The position numbers and the translations under genes are program-made. A DNA stretch of 64,000 bases from an uncultured Chloroflexia bacterium (GTDB taxonomy: Bacteria > Chloroflexota > Limnocylindria > Limnocylindrales > CSP1-4). Of the stretch, positions 13,849-56,936 are shown in pieces. The stretch is from positions 329,972-393,971 of the forward strand of contig CAVSKY010000001.1 of assembly GCA_963728745.1 (NCBI GenBank). The letters are read 5' to 3'. How positions within the stretch are numbered: position 1 is the first letter of the stretch; each line of letters begins with the position of its first letter. Below the pieces are notes generated by a model. That model did no database searches. It had not been told where the DNA came from and saw only the letters and a program-made list of their open reading frames with translations.

Positions 13849-16437
13849 TTGTCTCAGACGTTCGAGACACAGCTTGGTGGTCGCACGCTGACCATCGAAA
13901 CCGGCAAGCTTGCACGGCTCGCCGGCGGTTCCGTCACCGTCCGCTACGGCGACACCATGGTGCTTGGCACCGCCAACCGCTCCGAGCCCCGCCCCGGGCT
14001 CGACTTCTTCCCGCTCACGGTCGATTTCGAAGAGCGCATGTACGCCGCGGGCAAGATCCCGGGCGGCTTCATCAAGCGGGAGGCGCGTCCGTCGGAGAAC
14101 GCGATCCTCGCCGCCCGACAGACGGACCGGCCGATCCGCCCGCTTTTCCCCGAGGGCTACAAGGACGACGTCCAGCTGGTCATCACGGTCCTCTCGACCG
14201 ACCAGGAGAATCTCCCCGACGTCATCGGCACGATCGCCGCGTCGACGGCCCTGACCATCAGCGAGATCCCGTTCAACGGCCCGGTCGCTTCGGTGCGCGT
14301 CGGTCGGATCGGCGGCGAATTCGTCGTCAACCCGACGTTCAGCCAGCTCGCCGAGTCGGAGCTCGATCTGATCGTCGCCGGCACGCGCGACGCCATCATG
14401 ATGGTCGAAGCGGGCGCCAAGCTCCTGCCCGAGGACGTGATGGCCGAGGCCATCCTGTTCGGCCACCGGTCGCTGCAACCCATCGTCGACCTTCAGGAGG
14501 AGATCCAGAAGGCCTTCGGCAAGGCGAAGCGCATCCCGTACCTCGAGCCGACCACGGGTTCCGTGCTGGAGTTCGCCAGCGCGACGGACGAGAAGCGCGA
14601 GCTGGTCGTCCTCGACGTCGAGACGACGGGCACCGATCCCAAGATGTCCGACCTCCTCGAGGTCGCTGCGGTCAAGGTCAAGGGCACCGAGATCGTCGAT
14701 CGCTGGTCGACGTTCGTGAATCCCGGCCGGCCGATCGTCGGCAACCAGATGCACGGCATCACCGACAAAGACGTGCAAGGGGCACCGACCGCGCGCGAAG
14801 CCGCTGATCAGCTGCTCGCGTTCGTGGGCGACGCCAAGATCGTGGGTCACAACGTCGGCTTCGACCTGGCCTTCATCGAAGATGCCAAGGGCGACGGGTT
14901 CAGATTCGAGCCCGGCACGTACCTCGATACGCTGGTCATCGCCCGCGAAGGCTATCCGGGCGCCGAGTCATACAAGCTCGGCGACCTTGCGCGCTTCTTC
15001 GGTGTCGAGCTCAGCCAGGGCCATCGGGCGCTGCCTGACGCCGAGGCCACCGCCAACCTCCTGATCTGGTTCGCCAACGACCTGCCGGGTCGCATCTCGA
15101 CCCTGCGCACGGCGATCGCCGACGGGGTCCGCGCCCAGCGCAACGGTGGCGACACCGCCAGCCTGCTCGAGGCCGCTCGCCGCGACGCGCGGGTGAGCAA
15201 GAACCTGTTCAGCCTCGTCCAGAAGAAGACCGTCCGCCAGCTCGTCCTCGACGAGGGCATCCGCATCGACGGCCGCGGCCTGACGGACATCCGTCCGATC
15301 AGCGTCGAGGTCGGTCTCGTGCCGCGGGCCCATGGTTCCGGTTTGTTCACGCGCGGTGACACCCAGGCCCTGACGGTCGCCACGCTCGGATCGTCCTCGG
15401 ACGTCCAGCGGATCGACACGATCAGCCCGGAGACCGAGAAGCGCTATCTCCACCACTACAACTTCCCGCCGTACAGCACCGGCGAGAACAAGCCGATGCG
15501 TGGACCCAGCCGTCGCGACATCGGTCATGGCCATCTCGCGGAGCGGGCCCTCGTCCCGGTCCTCCCGGACCATGACGAGTTCCCGTACGTCATCCGGCTC
15601 GTGAGCGAGTGCGTGACGTCGAATGGTTCGACCTCGATGGCGTCGACCTGCGGATCGACCCTCGCCCTGATGGACGCCGGCGTGCCGATCAAGGCGCCGG
15701 TCGCCGGCGCCGCGATGGGTCTCATCAGCGAGCCCGACGGCCGCTTCGTCGTCCTCACCGACATCCTGGGCAAGGAGGACTCGATCGGGGACATGGACTT
15801 CAAGGTGACCGGGACGCGGGACGGCGTGACGGCCCTCCAGATGGACATCAAGGTCCAGGGCATCAGCGAGGCGATCATCCGCGATGGACTCAAGCAGGCC
15901 CTCGCGGCTCGGCTCGAGATCCTCGACAAGATGACCGCGGTGCTGCCCGAGGCCCGCGTGGAGATGAGCGACTTCGCGCCGCGCATCATCACGATCAAGA
16001 TCAACCCCGAGAAGATCCGCGACATCATCGGCAAGGGCGGATCGATGATCCGCAAGATCCAGGAAGAGACCCAGACCGAGATCAACGTCGAGGACGACGG
16101 CACCGTGGAGATCGCGGCCGTCTCGGGCGAGAACTCGCGCAAGGCGATCCAATGGATCGAGTCGCTGACTCGCGAGGTCGAGATCGGCGCGCTCTATCTC
16201 GGCAAGGTCACCCGCATCATGGGCTTCGGCGCATTCGTCGAGATCCTGCCCGGCAAGGAGGGCCTCGTCCGGATCGGCGAGCTCGCCGACTACCACGTGC
16301 CCACTGTCGAGGACGTTGTGTCCGTCGGCGATGAGGTGATGGTCGTCGTGACCGAGATCGACCGCCAGGGCCGTGTGAACCTATCGCGCAAGGCCGCGAT
16401 GCAGCGCCACCTGGCCAAGGAGCCGGTCGGGAGCTGA
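13849..16437 (+). CDS. pnp: Polyribonucleotide nucleotidyltransferase (PNPase) with an inserted DnaQ-like DEDDh 3'-5' exonuclease domain (aa ~250-412)
   Basis: RNase PH domain 1, then LVVLDVETTG (Exo I), IVGHNVGFDLAF (Exo II), GHRALPDAEA (Exo III), then RNase PH domain 2, KH (IGKGGSMIRKIQE), S1. TTG start with AAGGAGG RBS. 862 aa versus about 700-740 typical. Confidence 0.9.
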   Translation: MSQTFETQLGGRTLTIETGKLARLAGGSVTVRYGDTMVLGTANRSEPRPGLDFFPLTVDFEERMYAAGKIPGGFIKREARPSENAILAARQTDRPIRPLFPEGYKDDVQLVITVLSTDQENLPDVIGTIAASTALTISEIPFNGPVASVRVGRIGGEFVVNPTFSQLAESELDLIVAGTRDAIMMVEAGAKLLPEDVMAEAILFGHRSLQPIVDLQEEIQKAFGKAKRIPYLEPTTGSVLEFASATDEKRELVVLDVETTGTDPKMSDLLEVAAVKVKGTEIVDRWSTFVNPGRPIVGNQMHGITDKDVQGAPTAREAADQLLAFVGDAKIVGHNVGFDLAFIEDAKGDGFRFEPGTYLDTLVIAREGYPGAESYKLGDLARFFGVELSQGHRALPDAEATANLLIWFANDLPGRISTLRTAIADGVRAQRNGGDTASLLEAARRDARVSKNLFSLVQKKTVRQLVLDEGIRIDGRGLTDIRPISVEVGLVPRAHGSGLFTRGDTQALTVATLGSSSDVQRIDTISPETEKRYLHHYNFPPYSTGENKPMRGPSRRDIGHGHLAERALVPVLPDHDEFPYVIRLVSECVTSNGSTSMASTCGSTLALMDAGVPIKAPVAGAAMGLISEPDGRFVVLTDILGKEDSIGDMDFKVTGTRDGVTALQMDIKVQGISEAIIRDGLKQALAARLEILDKMTAVLPEARVEMSDFAPRIITIKINPEKIRDIIGKGGSMIRKIQEETQTEINVEDDGTVEIAAVSGENSRKAIQWIESLTREVEIGALYLGKVTRIMGFGAFVEILPGKEGLVRIGELADYHVPTVEDVVSVGDEVMVVVTEIDRQGRVNLSRKAAMQRHLAKEPVGS

Positions 16438-16744
16438 CGTTCCCTGCCACCAGACGTTCCGGTCGACCGGTCGGCGCCTTCGGGCCCGGCCGGTCGTCCG
16501 ATTCTGGTCCCGCAGCGCGATATGTGCTCGAATTCCGATGGGGTCGGAAGATCCGCGGCTAGGGCGCCGTAACGGACCCATCCCGCCCCCTTCGGCGCCG
16601 TCCCCCCGCACGGAAGATGCGGCGGTCAGGTCGTTGTGACCCTCGTAGCCCCGATTCTTCCAGTGGGAGCGGAAATGGAGTCAATACGGCCTCGCGGCTT
16701 GAAGCGACCCGGCTGGCCGACGGCGGATCGTGTGTACGCCCGGC

Positions 16745-16918
16745 CGCTCGTGGAACGCCCCATGTTCCGAGCGACCGGCGAGGGACTGTTGCACGGGCGA
16801 GCGGAGGTCGATCAAGGACGTTCCTCGACCGATCGGCACGCCGGACGTGCCGAACGACGGCCGAGTGCCCGAGCGCATTCGCTCAGCCGCCGCTCGGAAC
16901 GCCCCACGTTCCAGCGGC
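16745..16918. repeat. Cluster A of GGAAC-N7-GTTCC hairpin palindromes (two full copies at 16745-16774 and 16888-16918, one half-site at 16816-16824)
   Basis: gctcgTGGAACgccccatGTTCCgagcg and gctcgGAACgccccacGTTCCagcgg, near-identical 30-nt elements each forming an 11-12 bp stem. Confidence 0.6.
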
Positions 16919-17024
16919 ATGGCAATGCGCGATCCGGCGGGTGACCCAGCGCAGCGGTCGGTGTCGATGATGCCCGCTGCTATACTCCCGCCGTGCCCGA
17001 CGTGATCAAGACCACAGCGGAGCC

Positions 17025-44054: not shown

Positions 44055-44588
44055 TTGGCCGCGATGGAGTTGGTGCCATACGCGGACGAGCACCTGTGGT
44101 TGACGGAGGCGCTCGAGACCGACGACCAGGTCATGGCCGAACTCGGCGGTGCCTGGCCGCGCGACGCGATCCTTGGCATCCACGCGCGAAGGCTCAAGAG
44201 CATCGCCGGCGGGACGTGGCTGTTCACGATCGTGCCCGAACCGGGTTCGGCGCCCGTCGGCTTGATCGGCGTCTTCGACTCGGACCTCGACGGGAGTCCT
44301 ATCAGCGAGGCCTTCTGGTTGATCCTGCCGGCGCACCAGCGCCGCGGCTACGCGAGCGAGGCCCTTCGGATGGTGCTCGAGCGGGCGCAGGCGGATGCTC
44401 GCTGGGGTCCGATCCACGCATTCACGGGAATCACGAATAGCCCATCGAACGCTCTATGCCGCAAGTTCGGCTTCACCCTGATCGCTGAGCGCGAGATCGA
44501 ATACGGCGGGCGGACCCTCCGCTGCAATCACTGGATCCGGGAACCGCTGGTTTCTGACACCTCGCAGACCAGACCCGAAGGGAAGTAG
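44055..44588 (+). CDS. GNAT family N-acetyltransferase
   Basis: AHQRRGYASEALRMVLERA acetyl-CoA binding motif (Q/RxxGxA). Confidence 0.7.
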   Translation: MAAMELVPYADEHLWLTEALETDDQVMAELGGAWPRDAILGIHARRLKSIAGGTWLFTIVPEPGSAPVGLIGVFDSDLDGSPISEAFWLILPAHQRRGYASEALRMVLERAQADARWGPIHAFTGITNSPSNALCRKFGFTLIAEREIEYGGRTLRCNHWIREPLVSDTSQTRPEGK

Positions 44589-44593
44589 GCGGA

Positions 44594-45319
44594 GTGTGGC
44601 GGCGGAAGCGCGGCCGAGGCCTGTTCCGTGACTACGAGCTTCAGGTGATCGATCTGATCCGCTCTGGCCTGGATGCACGTGGCGCCGATCTCCTCGATCG
44701 CCAGATCGGATCCACCGAGTCCGTCCACCGCATGTTCGATGATCAGGATGTCTTGCTCTATCCGAACCGTCGAGGACCTCAGCATCACGACCCCGACATC
44801 GCCTTCCCGAATGTCGCGAAGGAGCTGCGTCTCGCGACGGTCCGACTTGCAGGATCAGAAGGCAATGGCCAAGTAGGGATCCACGTGGTCCACGGGCACA
44901 TATTCGAGCTCGACTTCCGGCCAAGCCCCAAGCGACTCGGGGGACGCTCATCGATCCGCACGACCGGCATCACGCTACATGCGGATCCGATGACCCCGGA
45001 TGACGGTGCCGGCCCACGTCGACTCCTGGCCCAGCTCGATGACCGGACGCGCGCGGAGTACGAAGCCCTCACCGCAGGGAGCCCGGCCGACCCGTTCCTC
45101 AGCGGGCTCGAGGACCTCTACTCGATCCACCTGGAGGACGGTGAGTACCTGCTGCTCGCCCAGCTCCCGGACACGAGCTTCGTCGTCGCTCCCACCGGCC
45201 CGAAGCGTTCCGGCGTGTACCGCTTCTGGCCCGATGGTGAGGCTATCGCGGAGTACGCCAGTATCCGGGCCGCTATCGATGATGCCGATGTCGAACCCAA
45301 CGACGCTAGAGGCGGATGA
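44594..45319 (+). CDS. Hypothetical protein
   Basis: 241-aa ORF with coding-like GC3. No recognisable motif. Confidence 0.45.
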   Translation: MWRRKRGRGLFRDYELQVIDLIRSGLDARGADLLDRQIGSTESVHRMFDDQDVLLYPNRRGPQHHDPDIAFPNVAKELRLATVRLAGSEGNGQVGIHVVHGHIFELDFRPSPKRLGGRSSIRTTGITLHADPMTPDDGAGPRRLLAQLDDRTRAEYEALTAGSPADPFLSGLEDLYSIHLEDGEYLLLAQLPDTSFVVAPTGPKRSGVYRFWPDGEAIAEYASIRAAIDDADVEPNDARGG

Positions 45320-45322
45320 CGG

Positions 45323-45703
45323 ATGGCTCAAGACGCGAACGCATCTGACCAGATCGACGCCATGCTGGCGGCGTTGCCCGACGATCAACGGATAGCGCTC
45401 CAGTCGTTGCGCGAGATGATCGCCGCGGCCGCGCCCGAGGCCGTCGAGGCGATCAGCTACGCCCTCCCGGCGTTCAGATACCGTGGGCGTCCGCTTGTCT
45501 CGTACGGGGCCGCCAAGTCCCATGTGGCGTTCTACTGCATGAGCCCGGGTGCGATGGAGCAGCACAGCGACCTGCTGGCCGGCTACGACACCTCGAAGGG
45601 CACGATCCGCTTCCAGCCGAACAAGCCGCTGCCCGCATCGCTGGTCACGACGCTCGTAAACGCGCGCCTGGCGGAGACGGACGCAGCCGCGAAGCGATCG
45701 TGA
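45323..45703 (+). CDS. DUF1801 (YdhG-like) domain protein
   Basis: LREMIAAAAPEAVEAISYALPAFRYRGRPLVSYGAAKSHVAFY pattern of the DUF1801 family. Confidence 0.65.
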   Translation: MAQDANASDQIDAMLAALPDDQRIALQSLREMIAAAAPEAVEAISYALPAFRYRGRPLVSYGAAKSHVAFYCMSPGAMEQHSDLLAGYDTSKGTIRFQPNKPLPASLVTTLVNARLAETDAAAKRS

Positions 45704-45725
45704 GAGGCGTGCCAGCTCGCCGGCA

Positions 45726-45900
45726 CGTGGAACGTCACGCGTTCCGACCGACGGCTGAGCTGCGCGAAACGAGCGCGAAGCCGGCCATTCCTCGGTCGTT
45801 TGGAACGCGCAGAGTTCCGATCAGCGGCTGAGGAGCAGGATCCCGCCCGCTCCTTCGTCGCTTGGAACGTGGGACGTTCCTGGCGATGTGCACGTTCCGA
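45726..45900. repeat. Cluster B of GGAAC-N7-GTTCC hairpin palindromes (three full copies and one half-site)
   Basis: cacgTGGAACgtcacgcGTTCCgaccg, tttGGAACgcgcagaGTTCCgatc, cttGGAACgtgggacGTTCCtgg, gcacGTTCCgacc. Confidence 0.6.
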
Positions 45901-45950
45901 CCATTCGTGGCATCGTTGCGTCTGCAACGACACGCCGGAGGGACGCCCAC

Positions 45951-46379
45951 ATGACGGACGTCAAGTCATTCGAGGACAAGCTCATCGCCGAGATGCGGGC
46001 GAACGACGGCAAGGTCCTGAGCGGCCCGCTCGCAGGGCATCCGCTCCTGATCATGACGAGCAGAGGAGCCAGGACCGGAGCGCCTCGCCGGGCGATCCTG
46101 ACCTACCACCGCGATGGCGACGACTACATCGTGGCCGGCACCGCGGGCGGCTCCAAGGCCGACCCGGCTTGGTTGCACAACGTCGAGGCCGATCCCGAGG
46201 TGACGATCGAGGTCGACACCCAGCAGTCCGAGGCGACAGCGACCACCATCGTCGAGGGCGCGGAGCGTGATCGCCTCTGGGACGACCACGTCAAGGCCCT
46301 GCCGTGGTTCGCCGACTATCCCGCCCAGACCGGCCGGCTGATTCCGATGATCCGGCTGGCCCGTCAGCGCGCGACCTGA
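45951..46379 (+). CDS. Deazaflavin (F420)-dependent nitroreductase family protein (Ddn-like, DUF385)
   Basis: GHPLLIMTSRGARTGAPRRAILTYHRDGDDYIVAGTAGGSKADPAWLHNVEADPEVTIEV...ERDRLWDDHVKALPWFADY matches Ddn-family conserved blocks. Confidence 0.8.
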   Translation: MTDVKSFEDKLIAEMRANDGKVLSGPLAGHPLLIMTSRGARTGAPRRAILTYHRDGDDYIVAGTAGGSKADPAWLHNVEADPEVTIEVDTQQSEATATTIVEGAERDRLWDDHVKALPWFADYPAQTGRLIPMIRLARQRAT

Positions 46380-55845: not shown

Positions 55846-56468
55846 TGGCTGCGACCCCGGACAAGGACGACGGTCTCAAGCGGCTCGGCGGCGGCCGCTG
55901 GCAGTCCCGCGACGAGCGCTTCACCATCGAGCCGCAATCGGGGACCTGGGCGGTCGTTGATGCCGAGCAGACAGATGACCTGGGCTTGCCGCTGGTGCGC
56001 GGCCCGTTCAAGAGCCTGACCGCCGCGAAGGCCGCGATCGGCGAGGCGCGGGGCACGGAGGCACCGACATCGTCGCTCAGATCGCGACCGGCGCCGACGG
56101 CCGAGAAACCGACGAAGGCATCCAAGGTCGCAGCGTCGGAACCCGAAGAACCCAAGGAGCCGCGCTGGATGCGCGACCTCGAACCGGCCGATCGACGGCG
56201 GGCCGCTCGGCTCATCGAGCTGCTCACCAAGGCCGACGCGTCCGACGCGGAAGGCATGGCCCGCCGCGACATGGTCGGTGACGTGCCGGCCGTGGCGGGG
56301 TTCGCCGTCGAGCGGGCGATCCGGGGGCTCGGGTCGAAGGCGACGCCGGGCGCGGTCGCCGACCTGCTTGCCGACGGGCGCGACAGCGAGCTCGGGGTGC
56401 GGTGGCGCCTCGTCGATGGCGATGGCCGCCCGATCTCTATCGAGACCGACGCACTCCAGAAGGAGTGA
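55845..56468 (+). CDS. Hypothetical protein
   Basis: ATG overlaps the upstream stop (TGATG). Charged, Ala-rich, no motif. Confidence 0.5.
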   Translation: MAATPDKDDGLKRLGGGRWQSRDERFTIEPQSGTWAVVDAEQTDDLGLPLVRGPFKSLTAAKAAIGEARGTEAPTSSLRSRPAPTAEKPTKASKVAASEPEEPKEPRWMRDLEPADRRRAARLIELLTKADASDAEGMARRDMVGDVPAVAGFAVERAIRGLGSKATPGAVADLLADGRDSELGVRWRLVDGDGRPISIETDALQKE

Positions 56469-56483
56469 CACCCGCTGGCTGCC

Positions 56484-56640
56484 GCTGGAACATGCCGATG
56501 TTCCAAGCGACGAAGGAAGGGGCAGAAGCCACTCGCTCCACCGCTATTTGGAATATCCACACGTTCCAAACGGCCAACGAGGGCATGATTCCTGCCCATT
56601 TCGCCGGTCTCCTTCGCTGATCGGCACATCGGGATGTTCC
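56484..56640. repeat. Cluster C of GGAAC/GTTCC hairpin palindromes (two full copies with 8-nt spacer and one half-site)
   Basis: gcTGGAACatgccgatGTTCCAagc, ttTGGAATatccacacGTTCCAaa, gatGTTCCAaacg. Begins 16 nt after the upstream stop and ends 39 nt before the HTH gene. Confidence 0.6.
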
Positions 56641-56678
56641 AAACGCACATCGGCACCATCTGGCATACCGTGCGACCC

Positions 56679-56936
56679 ATGGACGATCACCTTTCGACCG
56701 AGCACGTCGCCTGGATCCTCGATCGCTCGCCGGAAGCGGTCCGCGACATGATCCGCGACGGCGAGATCGAGGGGGCACGGATTCCCGCTGGCTTCCGGAT
56801 CCCCAAGGCAGAGGCGCTTCGACTCGCCCGCGAGCGGATCGAGGCCGAGGCCGGTCGGAAGATGTCCGATCGTCAGCTGGAGCGCGTGATCGACGAGCTC
56901 ATCGCGACGAACGAGGAGCGCCGCGAGCGCTCCTGA
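56679..56936 (+). CDS. Excisionase/MerR-family helix-turn-helix DNA-binding protein
   Basis: LSTEHVAWILDRSPEAVRDMIRDGEIEGARIPAGFRIPKAEALRL matches the excisionase-family HTH domain. Confidence 0.65.
   Translation: MDDHLSTEHVAWILDRSPEAVRDMIRDGEIEGARIPAGFRIPKAEALRLARERIEAEAGRKMSDRQLERVIDELIATNEERRERS

Follow-up and report, generated by a model that had tools for sequence, protein, structure and literature searches.

A three-hairpin composite repeat, probably REPIN/BIME/MITE-like, upstream of a Ddn-like gene in an uncultured Limnocylindria bacterium

The three hairpins that separate a DUF1801 protein gene from a Ddn-like F420H2-dependent quinone reductase gene in the 64-kb stretch of DNA analysed here (the window) are a single composite element (45728-45881) rather than independent sites. 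We consider it probable that this element belongs to a family of interspersed, non-autonomous palindromic repeats, REPIN/BIME/MITE-like in character, in the chromosome of an uncultured member of the Limnocylindria, and the best reading is that of a selfish-DNA-like repeat with no dedicated role as a switch for the Ddn-like gene. A repeat element is favoured because the sequence belongs to a multi-copy family with sharp ends, inverted hairpin-bearing termini and no coding capacity, and because its copies occupy unrelated intergenic spacers within a narrow lineage and show presence/absence at two orthologous sites.

On reading the sequence, three perfect GGAAC-N7-GTTCC palindromes, each preceded by a T, are found at 45729-45745, 45802-45818 and 45864-45880 (cluster B), with the hairpin sequences TGGAACgtcacgcGTTCC (45728-45745), TGGAACgcgcagaGTTCC (45801-45818) and TGGAACgtgggacGTTCC (45863-45880), while a half-site, CGTTCCGACC, follows on the plus strand at 45893-45902. 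The motif occurs five times in the window, as compared to a mean of 0.08 and a maximum of 1 in 100 dinucleotide-preserving shuffles, and the remaining two matches, at 16752 and 16896, form cluster A. The cluster of three copies and a half-site that an earlier note on this DNA had described is thus real. The same note had assigned clusters A and B to one motif family, which agrees with their common layout: aligned in both orientations, they yield one three-unit consensus (alignment A1). The DUF1801 gene upstream (45323-45703, plus strand; Pfam PF08818, E=1.4e-15) has its stop codon at 45701-45703, and the cluster begins 23-25 nt downstream of it. The Ddn-like gene on the other side (45951-46379, plus strand; Pfam PF04075, E=3.5e-30) starts with an ATG at 45951, 49 nt past the half-site, and has a GGAGG ribosome-binding site in front.

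This copy of the element (copy B, 154 nt) consists of a terminal unit, a central palindrome and an inverted second terminal unit, with hairpin centres spaced by 73 and 62 nt and with 25/33 positions of the terminal units matching when inverted. Terminal unit 1 (45728-45760, plus strand; nhmmer E=1.4e-6), identified by repeat finding and alignment, combines the hairpin GGAACG/CGTTCC (45729-45745) with the interior flank GACCGACGGCTGAGC, while terminal unit 3 (45848-45881, minus strand; E=4.6e-5), recognized as an inverted repeat, combines the hairpin at 45864-45880 with the minus-strand interior flank AAGCGACGAAGGAGC; the 33-nt terminal inverted units read TGGAACG-N6-GTTCCGAnCnnCGGCTGAG. The central unit (45785-45834), whose hairpin at 45802-45818 carries a basal stem extension of CCTCGGTCG and CGGCTGAGG, has profile matches on either strand, with E-values of about 2e-5 to 5e-5. 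Conservation does reach past the stem, as the earlier note had observed: repeat finding returns an oriented 32-nt unit, TGGAACG-N6-GTTCCGAyCrrCGGCTGAG, common to copies 1 and 2 of the hairpin (75% identity). The common 3' flank GTTCCGAyCG given there is exact for copy 1 and fails elsewhere, with copy 2 reading GTTCCGATCA and the half-site GTTCCGACCA. In copy 3, the flank lies on the opposite strand, such that copies 1 and 3 form an inverted pair with 32-nt arms that are 78% complementary. Each terminal unit comprises a hairpin of 5-7 bp, GGAAC(G)/(C)GTTCC, whose loop is free, and, on its inner side, GAnCGrCGGCTGAG; in the unit between the terminal ones, both flanks lengthen the hairpin into a long palindrome.

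Across copies, the element is about 135-165 bp long, and the terminal units, inverted with respect to each other, match at 20-27/33 positions (8 copies). The hairpin centres are spaced by ~73 and ~62 nt in 6/8 copies, in either order, with copy A (83/61) and metagenome contig L104 (62.5/53.5) as the exceptions. The spacing order is reversed in copy C and in contig L090, and thus the element is directional and is found in both orientations. In the unit alignments (A2 and A6), the outer flanks of the terminal units are unrelated among copies as far as the T of TGGAAC, whereas conservation is seen in the inner flanks, and the central units are conserved on both sides, such that the element boundary is sharp at the junction of T and GGAAC. 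The 24 aligned units have stems of 5-8 bp and loops of 3-7 nt, with 5-bp arms that are nearly invariant and loop sequences that vary freely. At the sixth stem position, 11 units have a G-C pair, 5 have A-T and 2 have G.T; the stem is closed by T.G or T-A. When the hairpins were tested for covariation, 90% of cells were paired over the 24 units and the covariation signal was weak compared with shuffles, and hence a folded hairpin and a duplex dyad are not separable by these data. Inside the copies, we find no gene-like ORF, only spurious overlapping ones.

Copy A (163 nt, 16751-16913) lies between pnp and asd and has hairpins at 16752-16768, 16835-16851 and 16896-16912, with a plus unit starting at 16751 and a minus unit ending at 16913. 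Its central palindrome, GGCACgccggacGTGCC (16835-16851), is a diverged GGCAC/GTGCC variant with matching A-to-C and T-to-G changes in both arms. Copy C (156 nt, 56486-56641; hairpins 56487-56504, 56550-56567 and 56623-56640), which was recovered with a unit HMM, has the opposite polarity (63 + 73 nt) and escaped the exact pattern because its hairpin spacers are 8 nt long; its neighbours are a hypothetical gene that ends at 56468 and a small HTH_17 gene with its start near 56679. In total, the 64 kb contain three composite copies, or nine units, all of them intergenic.

Outside the window, the full three-unit block is present in metagenome contigs L090 (117-269), L104 (33-167) and L108 (345-498), each in another context, and contig L085 holds a two-unit relic. 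The metagenome scan, run with a shorter pattern, returned 31 loci, about 27 of which are chance single matches in coding DNA. The exact 22-base pattern had 0 matches among 185,579 species genomes, an 18-base pattern had 0 in viral contigs, distant blastn gave no match to plasmids, and a unit search over ~350 kb from 20 related Limnocylindria loci (L003-L022) was likewise negative. No autonomous parent with the same ends appeared in the exact-pattern scans, which gave short non-coding copies only (3-4 true metagenome matches). Identity between non-orthologous copies is 60-69%, compared with 51% for shuffled sequences. At this low identity, the copies within the genome show no sign of recent bursts, which counts against the repeat reading, as does the size of the census, 64 kb and a handful of contigs.

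In 4/6 copies with examined neighbours (B, C, L090 and that of contig L119), the upstream ORF's stop codon is separated from the element by 18-60 nt, which matches the placement of REPs between co-directional genes, shortly past the stop codon (PMC3733652); the nearest stop codon is 314 nt away from copy A and about 100 nt away from L104. The region directly downstream of the pnp stop (16438-16497) contains two ACGTTCC half-sites (16438-16470) and a GC-rich hairpin, GACCGGTCGGCGCC ttcg GGCCCGGCCGGTC, and relatives have a comparable hairpin after pnp that is terminator-like without a T-run. The two half-sites were considered as element units, but the unit HMM does not match them, and we take them as chance occurrences beside the terminator-like hairpin.

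The site of copy B was compared among lineages by tracing homologues of the Ddn-like protein, which is found in identical form on long ENA metagenome contigs, to the contigs that encode them. The element is present in the window, L001 and L002 (Ddn-like protein 100% identical), in L118 (94%) and in L119 (92%), whereas L114, L115, L116, L117, L123 and L125 (89-91%) have the same downstream ArsR/AHSA1/glyoxalase genes and no element, giving 6 empty versus 3 filled lineages. The intergenic gap is 68-90 nt at the empty sites, measurable in the five contigs with an upstream gene, versus 247 nt in the window; L125 starts inside the spacer and reads through the empty junction. Relative to the empty sites, the extra DNA amounts to 164 nt (45725-45888), lying between ...CGGC and TGCAC... 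in alignments A3 and A5 against L114, L115 and L116 (L117 only in A3) and on direct reading of L123 and L125. The half-site aligns with TGCACnTTCGGCGGATCC-type DNA at the empty sites and is thus native upstream sequence of the Ddn-like gene rather than part of the insert. This removes it from the cluster in which the earlier note had counted it, and for the same reason we rejected the ideas that it is a fourth unit or that a second, truncated element starts there. At its position, the filled lineages have [G/A]TTCC and the empty ones GTTCG, ACTCC, TTTCG, ATCTG or ATACT; a target preference for [G/A]TTCC is unsupported at copies A and C and at the metagenome copies.

Inspection of the ends of 8 copies by eye gave no common abutting direct repeat that would mark a target-site duplication. 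Around insert B, a candidate 5-6 bp direct repeat can be seen (GCACG at 45723-45727 and 45890-45894; GGCACG at 214-218 and 386-390 of L119), which requires the right end to lie 8-9 nt past GTTCC and of which the empty sites have one copy (TGCAC). It is absent at the other element copies and may be due to chance.

A second empty site is found at pnp-asd. The closest species genome by PNPase is L003, a "Candidatus Limnocylindrales" MAG (91% identity), and the PNPase relatives point to Chloroflexota, class Limnocylindria. The pnp-asd synteny is retained in relatives, and copy A is absent from this spacer in L003 and six other relatives, with 152 nt between the genes in L003 versus 587 nt in the window. 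Presence/absence at orthologous sites, as expected of MITEs, is thus observed for both copies A and B. Strains at 99.75-100% identity all carry copies A, B and C, with no presence/absence polymorphism.

For copy B, the aligned loci show that the DNA was inserted, in a sub-lineage, between the upstream gene and a pre-existing promoter-proximal region of the Ddn-like gene. This proximal region (45908-45942, plus strand) comprises GTGGCATCGTTGCGnCTnCAACGA (45908-45930) and the ribosome-binding site GGAGG (45938-45942), forms invariant columns in alignments A3 and A5 at filled and empty loci, and includes an inverted repeat of TCGTTG (45913-45918) and CAACGA (45925-45930) with an N6 spacer. It is likely the actual promoter or operator region of the Ddn-like gene. 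A false lead is removed: the palindromes are not a Ddn/F420-specific regulatory motif, and the conserved inverted repeat is the one at 45913-45930. An ArsR-family regulator is encoded downstream of the Ddn-like gene. At asd, a promoter-like block, CTGnTATACTC...GTGCCC...GAGCCATG (16977-17024; 12680-12735 in L003), lies downstream of copy A and is conserved in all Limnocylindria relatives examined.

Between the window and L119, the element is 84% identical, whereas third codon positions of the gene and the proximal region are each 90% identical, and thus the element overall is not conserved beyond neutrality. The GGAAC/GTTCC arms, in contrast, have 0/30 changes versus 24/124 elsewhere (Fisher one-sided p=0.003). 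Such conservation of the arms in place hints at constraint or gene conversion, which would be unlike a purely decaying selfish relic, and it is the sole observation that favours retained function or concerted evolution. Between the window (45728-45881) and L118 (16-169), the element is 59% identical, no closer than non-orthologous copies, and in L118 each of the hairpins contains a mismatch. The first of them, TGGAACATGACGTGTTAC, is almost the same as a hairpin of the unrelated locus L104, TGGAACATGACGTGTTCC. As third positions of the gene (92-94%), the flanking gene (95.6%) and the flanks (92-96%) remain similar, this copy has been replaced or independently inserted, an indication of turnover, and the comparison suggests that replacement, gene conversion or re-insertion may have occurred at the same position.

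The gene upstream of the element also varies, being DUF1801 in the window, OmdA-like in L119 and a GNAT-DUF1801 fusion at the empty sites; the spot is thus rearrangement-prone. The fusion is one 288-aa ORF beside the Ddn-like gene in relatives (L115:346-1212, L116:1988-2854, L123:190-1056). In the window, GNAT (44055-44588) and DUF1801 (45323-45703) are split, and the 241-aa ORF between them (44594-45319) has no Pfam match.

Several established repeats resemble the element in part. Like the REP, BIME and REPIN sequences of E. coli and Pseudomonas, which are mobilised by RAYT tyrosine transposases, it is built of short, GC-rich, imperfect palindromes with free loops, arranged as inverted units around a spacer; the stems and loops of its units fall within the REP-type range (stem of 5-13 bp, loop of 2-20 nt), and two inverted units around a spacer are able to form one long hairpin, as in a REPIN, with unit 1 pairing with unit 3 in the minimum-free-energy fold of cluster B. 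It is likewise intergenic, located mostly soon past an upstream stop, lineage-restricted and free of a consistent target duplication. It differs in having no conserved GTAG/CGTC tag, in being a three-unit block with a central long palindrome rather than a doublet, in the lack of a RAYT among the 47 window proteins, in its Limnocylindria (Chloroflexota) host and in copies that are only 60-69% identical. GTAG is absent from all 24 units, and GACG, the reverse complement of CGTC, lies 4 nt from the stem in only 10/24 (by eye on A6; consensus CGRCG), and we therefore class the element as a new family of a known kind, outside the GTAG/CGTC REP superfamilies. The GTAG-23 REPs of Thermomicrobium roseum (Chloroflexi; PMC3733652) are also clustered palindromic repeats, from a GC-rich member of the same phylum, but here the motif is TGGAAC-N7-GTTCCR and the copies are scattered blocks of three units.

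With respect to MITEs, the copies are small (135-163 nt), have 33-nt inverted ends and contain no ORF. The closest parallel is with the Correia elements of Neisseria (about 100-155 bp), which have a similar size, terminal inverted repeats, a non-coding and intergenic nature, presence/absence at orthologous sites and the potential for co-transcription. However, Correia elements have a TA target duplication, an IHF site and promoter elements, whereas we observe no consistent duplication and no promoter consensus; the terminal repeats here each form a hairpin of their own, and the sequences are not similar. LexA boxes of the form GAAC-N4-GTTC are found in Gram-positive bacteria and Chloroflexi, and the GAAC/GTTC dyad symmetry is alike, but the spacing here is 7 rather than 4, the dyads are part of a repeated 155-nt block that is unconserved at orthologous promoters, and no SOS gene is adjacent. 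Integron attC, dif/Xer, sigma-54 and ECF promoters and the LexA box were rejected on spacing and consensus and on the lack of conservation of the sites at orthologous loci.

The likeliest of the alternatives, though an unlikely one, is that of a host-used RNA structure: a U-tract-independent terminator or attenuator of DUF1801, a 3'-end stabiliser or a 5'-UTR structure of the Ddn-like gene, which may have been secondarily acquired by the repeat. On both strands, the fold of the intergenic region is much stronger than those of shuffled sequences (z=-3.9 and -3.8), the stems contain G.U-compatible pairs, and both the placement past stop codons described above and the known action of REPs in this manner (PMC3733652) are consistent with such a role. 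Against it, the element is mirror-symmetric, with T.G closing pairs in one terminal unit that become C.A in the inverted partner on the same strand, such that no single transcript strand is favoured, and it occurs in both polarities relative to upstream genes. Rfam gave no match at the gathering threshold for the whole window nor at E<=1 for 45650-45960, and no sigma-70-like promoter or T-run terminator is found in 45600-46050, with the terminator scan covering both strands. Absence from orthologous loci further makes the element dispensable for these genes.

The element does not fit a cis-regulatory RNA of the Ddn-like gene, given its absence at six orthologous loci, its mirror-symmetric structure and the lack of an Rfam match, nor does it fit an intrinsic terminator, as the GC-rich hairpin has no T-run in 45600-46050. 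The two roles that the earlier note had envisaged, hairpins in the 5' UTR of the Ddn-like gene or terminators of the upstream gene, are not supported: the palindromes are one composite insertion that is found at unrelated loci too and is absent at six orthologous Ddn-like loci, with neither a T-run terminator nor a sigma-70-like promoter detected.

Less probable still is a host-maintained DNA structural site, in which selection would retain the triple dyad as the binding site of a nucleoid or topology protein, in the manner of E. coli BIMEs. Those BIMEs bind gyrase, IHF or Pol I. The arms conserved in place between orthologous copies (p=0.003) would fit, as would a three-unit geometry retained despite spacer divergence to 60-69% identity; the L118 copy with its mismatched hairpins, the close relatives that do without the element and the lack of any known binding protein argue otherwise. 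Operators, with a dimeric transcription factor binding three GGAAC-N7-GTTCC dyads to regulate the Ddn-like gene and asd, are very improbable: the arm sequence is conserved far beyond covariation needs (90% of cells paired, weak covariation) and unchanged between orthologous copies (0/30), a 12-bp centre-to-centre dyad would suit a helix-turn-helix dimer, and PadR and ArsR-family regulators are encoded nearby, but the sites are missing at six orthologous Ddn-like loci and upstream of asd in relatives, where other upstream sequence is conserved, they invariably form one fixed block of three units that ends sharply and has conserved flanks outside the dyads, in both polarities and beside unrelated genes, and copy A lies ~70 nt upstream of the conserved asd TATACT block, beside the 3' side of pnp.

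Under the favoured reading of a non-autonomous repeat, copies would be made and placed by a trans-acting enzyme that recognizes the TGGAAC-N7-GTTCCA hairpin ends. Given the hairpin ends and the absence of a consistent target-site duplication, this enzyme would more likely be an HUH/RAYT-type single-strand transposase than a DDE enzyme; some DDE families, too, typically have TG...CA termini. Any effect on neighbouring genes would be incidental, and with read-through from DUF1801, stable RNA hairpins could cause transcriptional pausing or termination or shield the upstream 3' end in a REP-like manner. A more far-reaching proposal, which we put forward as tentative and somewhat doubtful, is that of a tag-less REP superfamily in Limnocylindria, long-lived, vertically inherited and uncatalogued, which would be kept by a single-copy domesticated transposase or a host DNA-binding protein, with arms under purifying selection or gene conversion and with one site repeatedly occupied by different family members. 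No transposase, RAYT or integrase was detected among the 47 window proteins scanned in Pfam, which come from 64 kb of a genome of >1.2 Mb and are housekeeping or accessory (dxr, rseP, nusA, infB, rbfA, rpsO, pnp, asd, ftsK, cinA and others). This result tells against the reading of a non-autonomous repeat, as do the inconsistent target-site duplication, the uniform presence of the copies among near-identical strains and the conserved arms.

These observations record a repeat family in the Limnocylindria, a widespread uncultured class of soil and freshwater, in which, as far as we found, interspersed repeats had not been described. Should there be a cognate enzyme, the family would carry REPIN/RAYT-type biology into a new phylum-level lineage, and with a new end motif. 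Repeats of this kind interrupt short-read assemblies and mark rearrangement-prone spots, and element copies could serve as strain markers. Contigs L090 (1-120), L104 (1-35) and L118 (1-16), all from short reads, begin within 15-120 nt of the element, at or near a copy, which is consistent with assembly breaks at the repeat.

Finally, the PNPase encoded by pnp (13849-16437, plus strand) is 862 aa long and has an RNase_T/DEDD exonuclease domain (PF00929, aa 253-405) between its two RNase PH cores. Full-length matches of ~2580 nt are found in about a dozen MAG loci of Limnocylindria type among L003-L022, with the others ending at contig edges or being shorter, and matches in other phyla span about 2080 nt. 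The domain looks like a lineage-specific insertion in a core RNA-decay enzyme.
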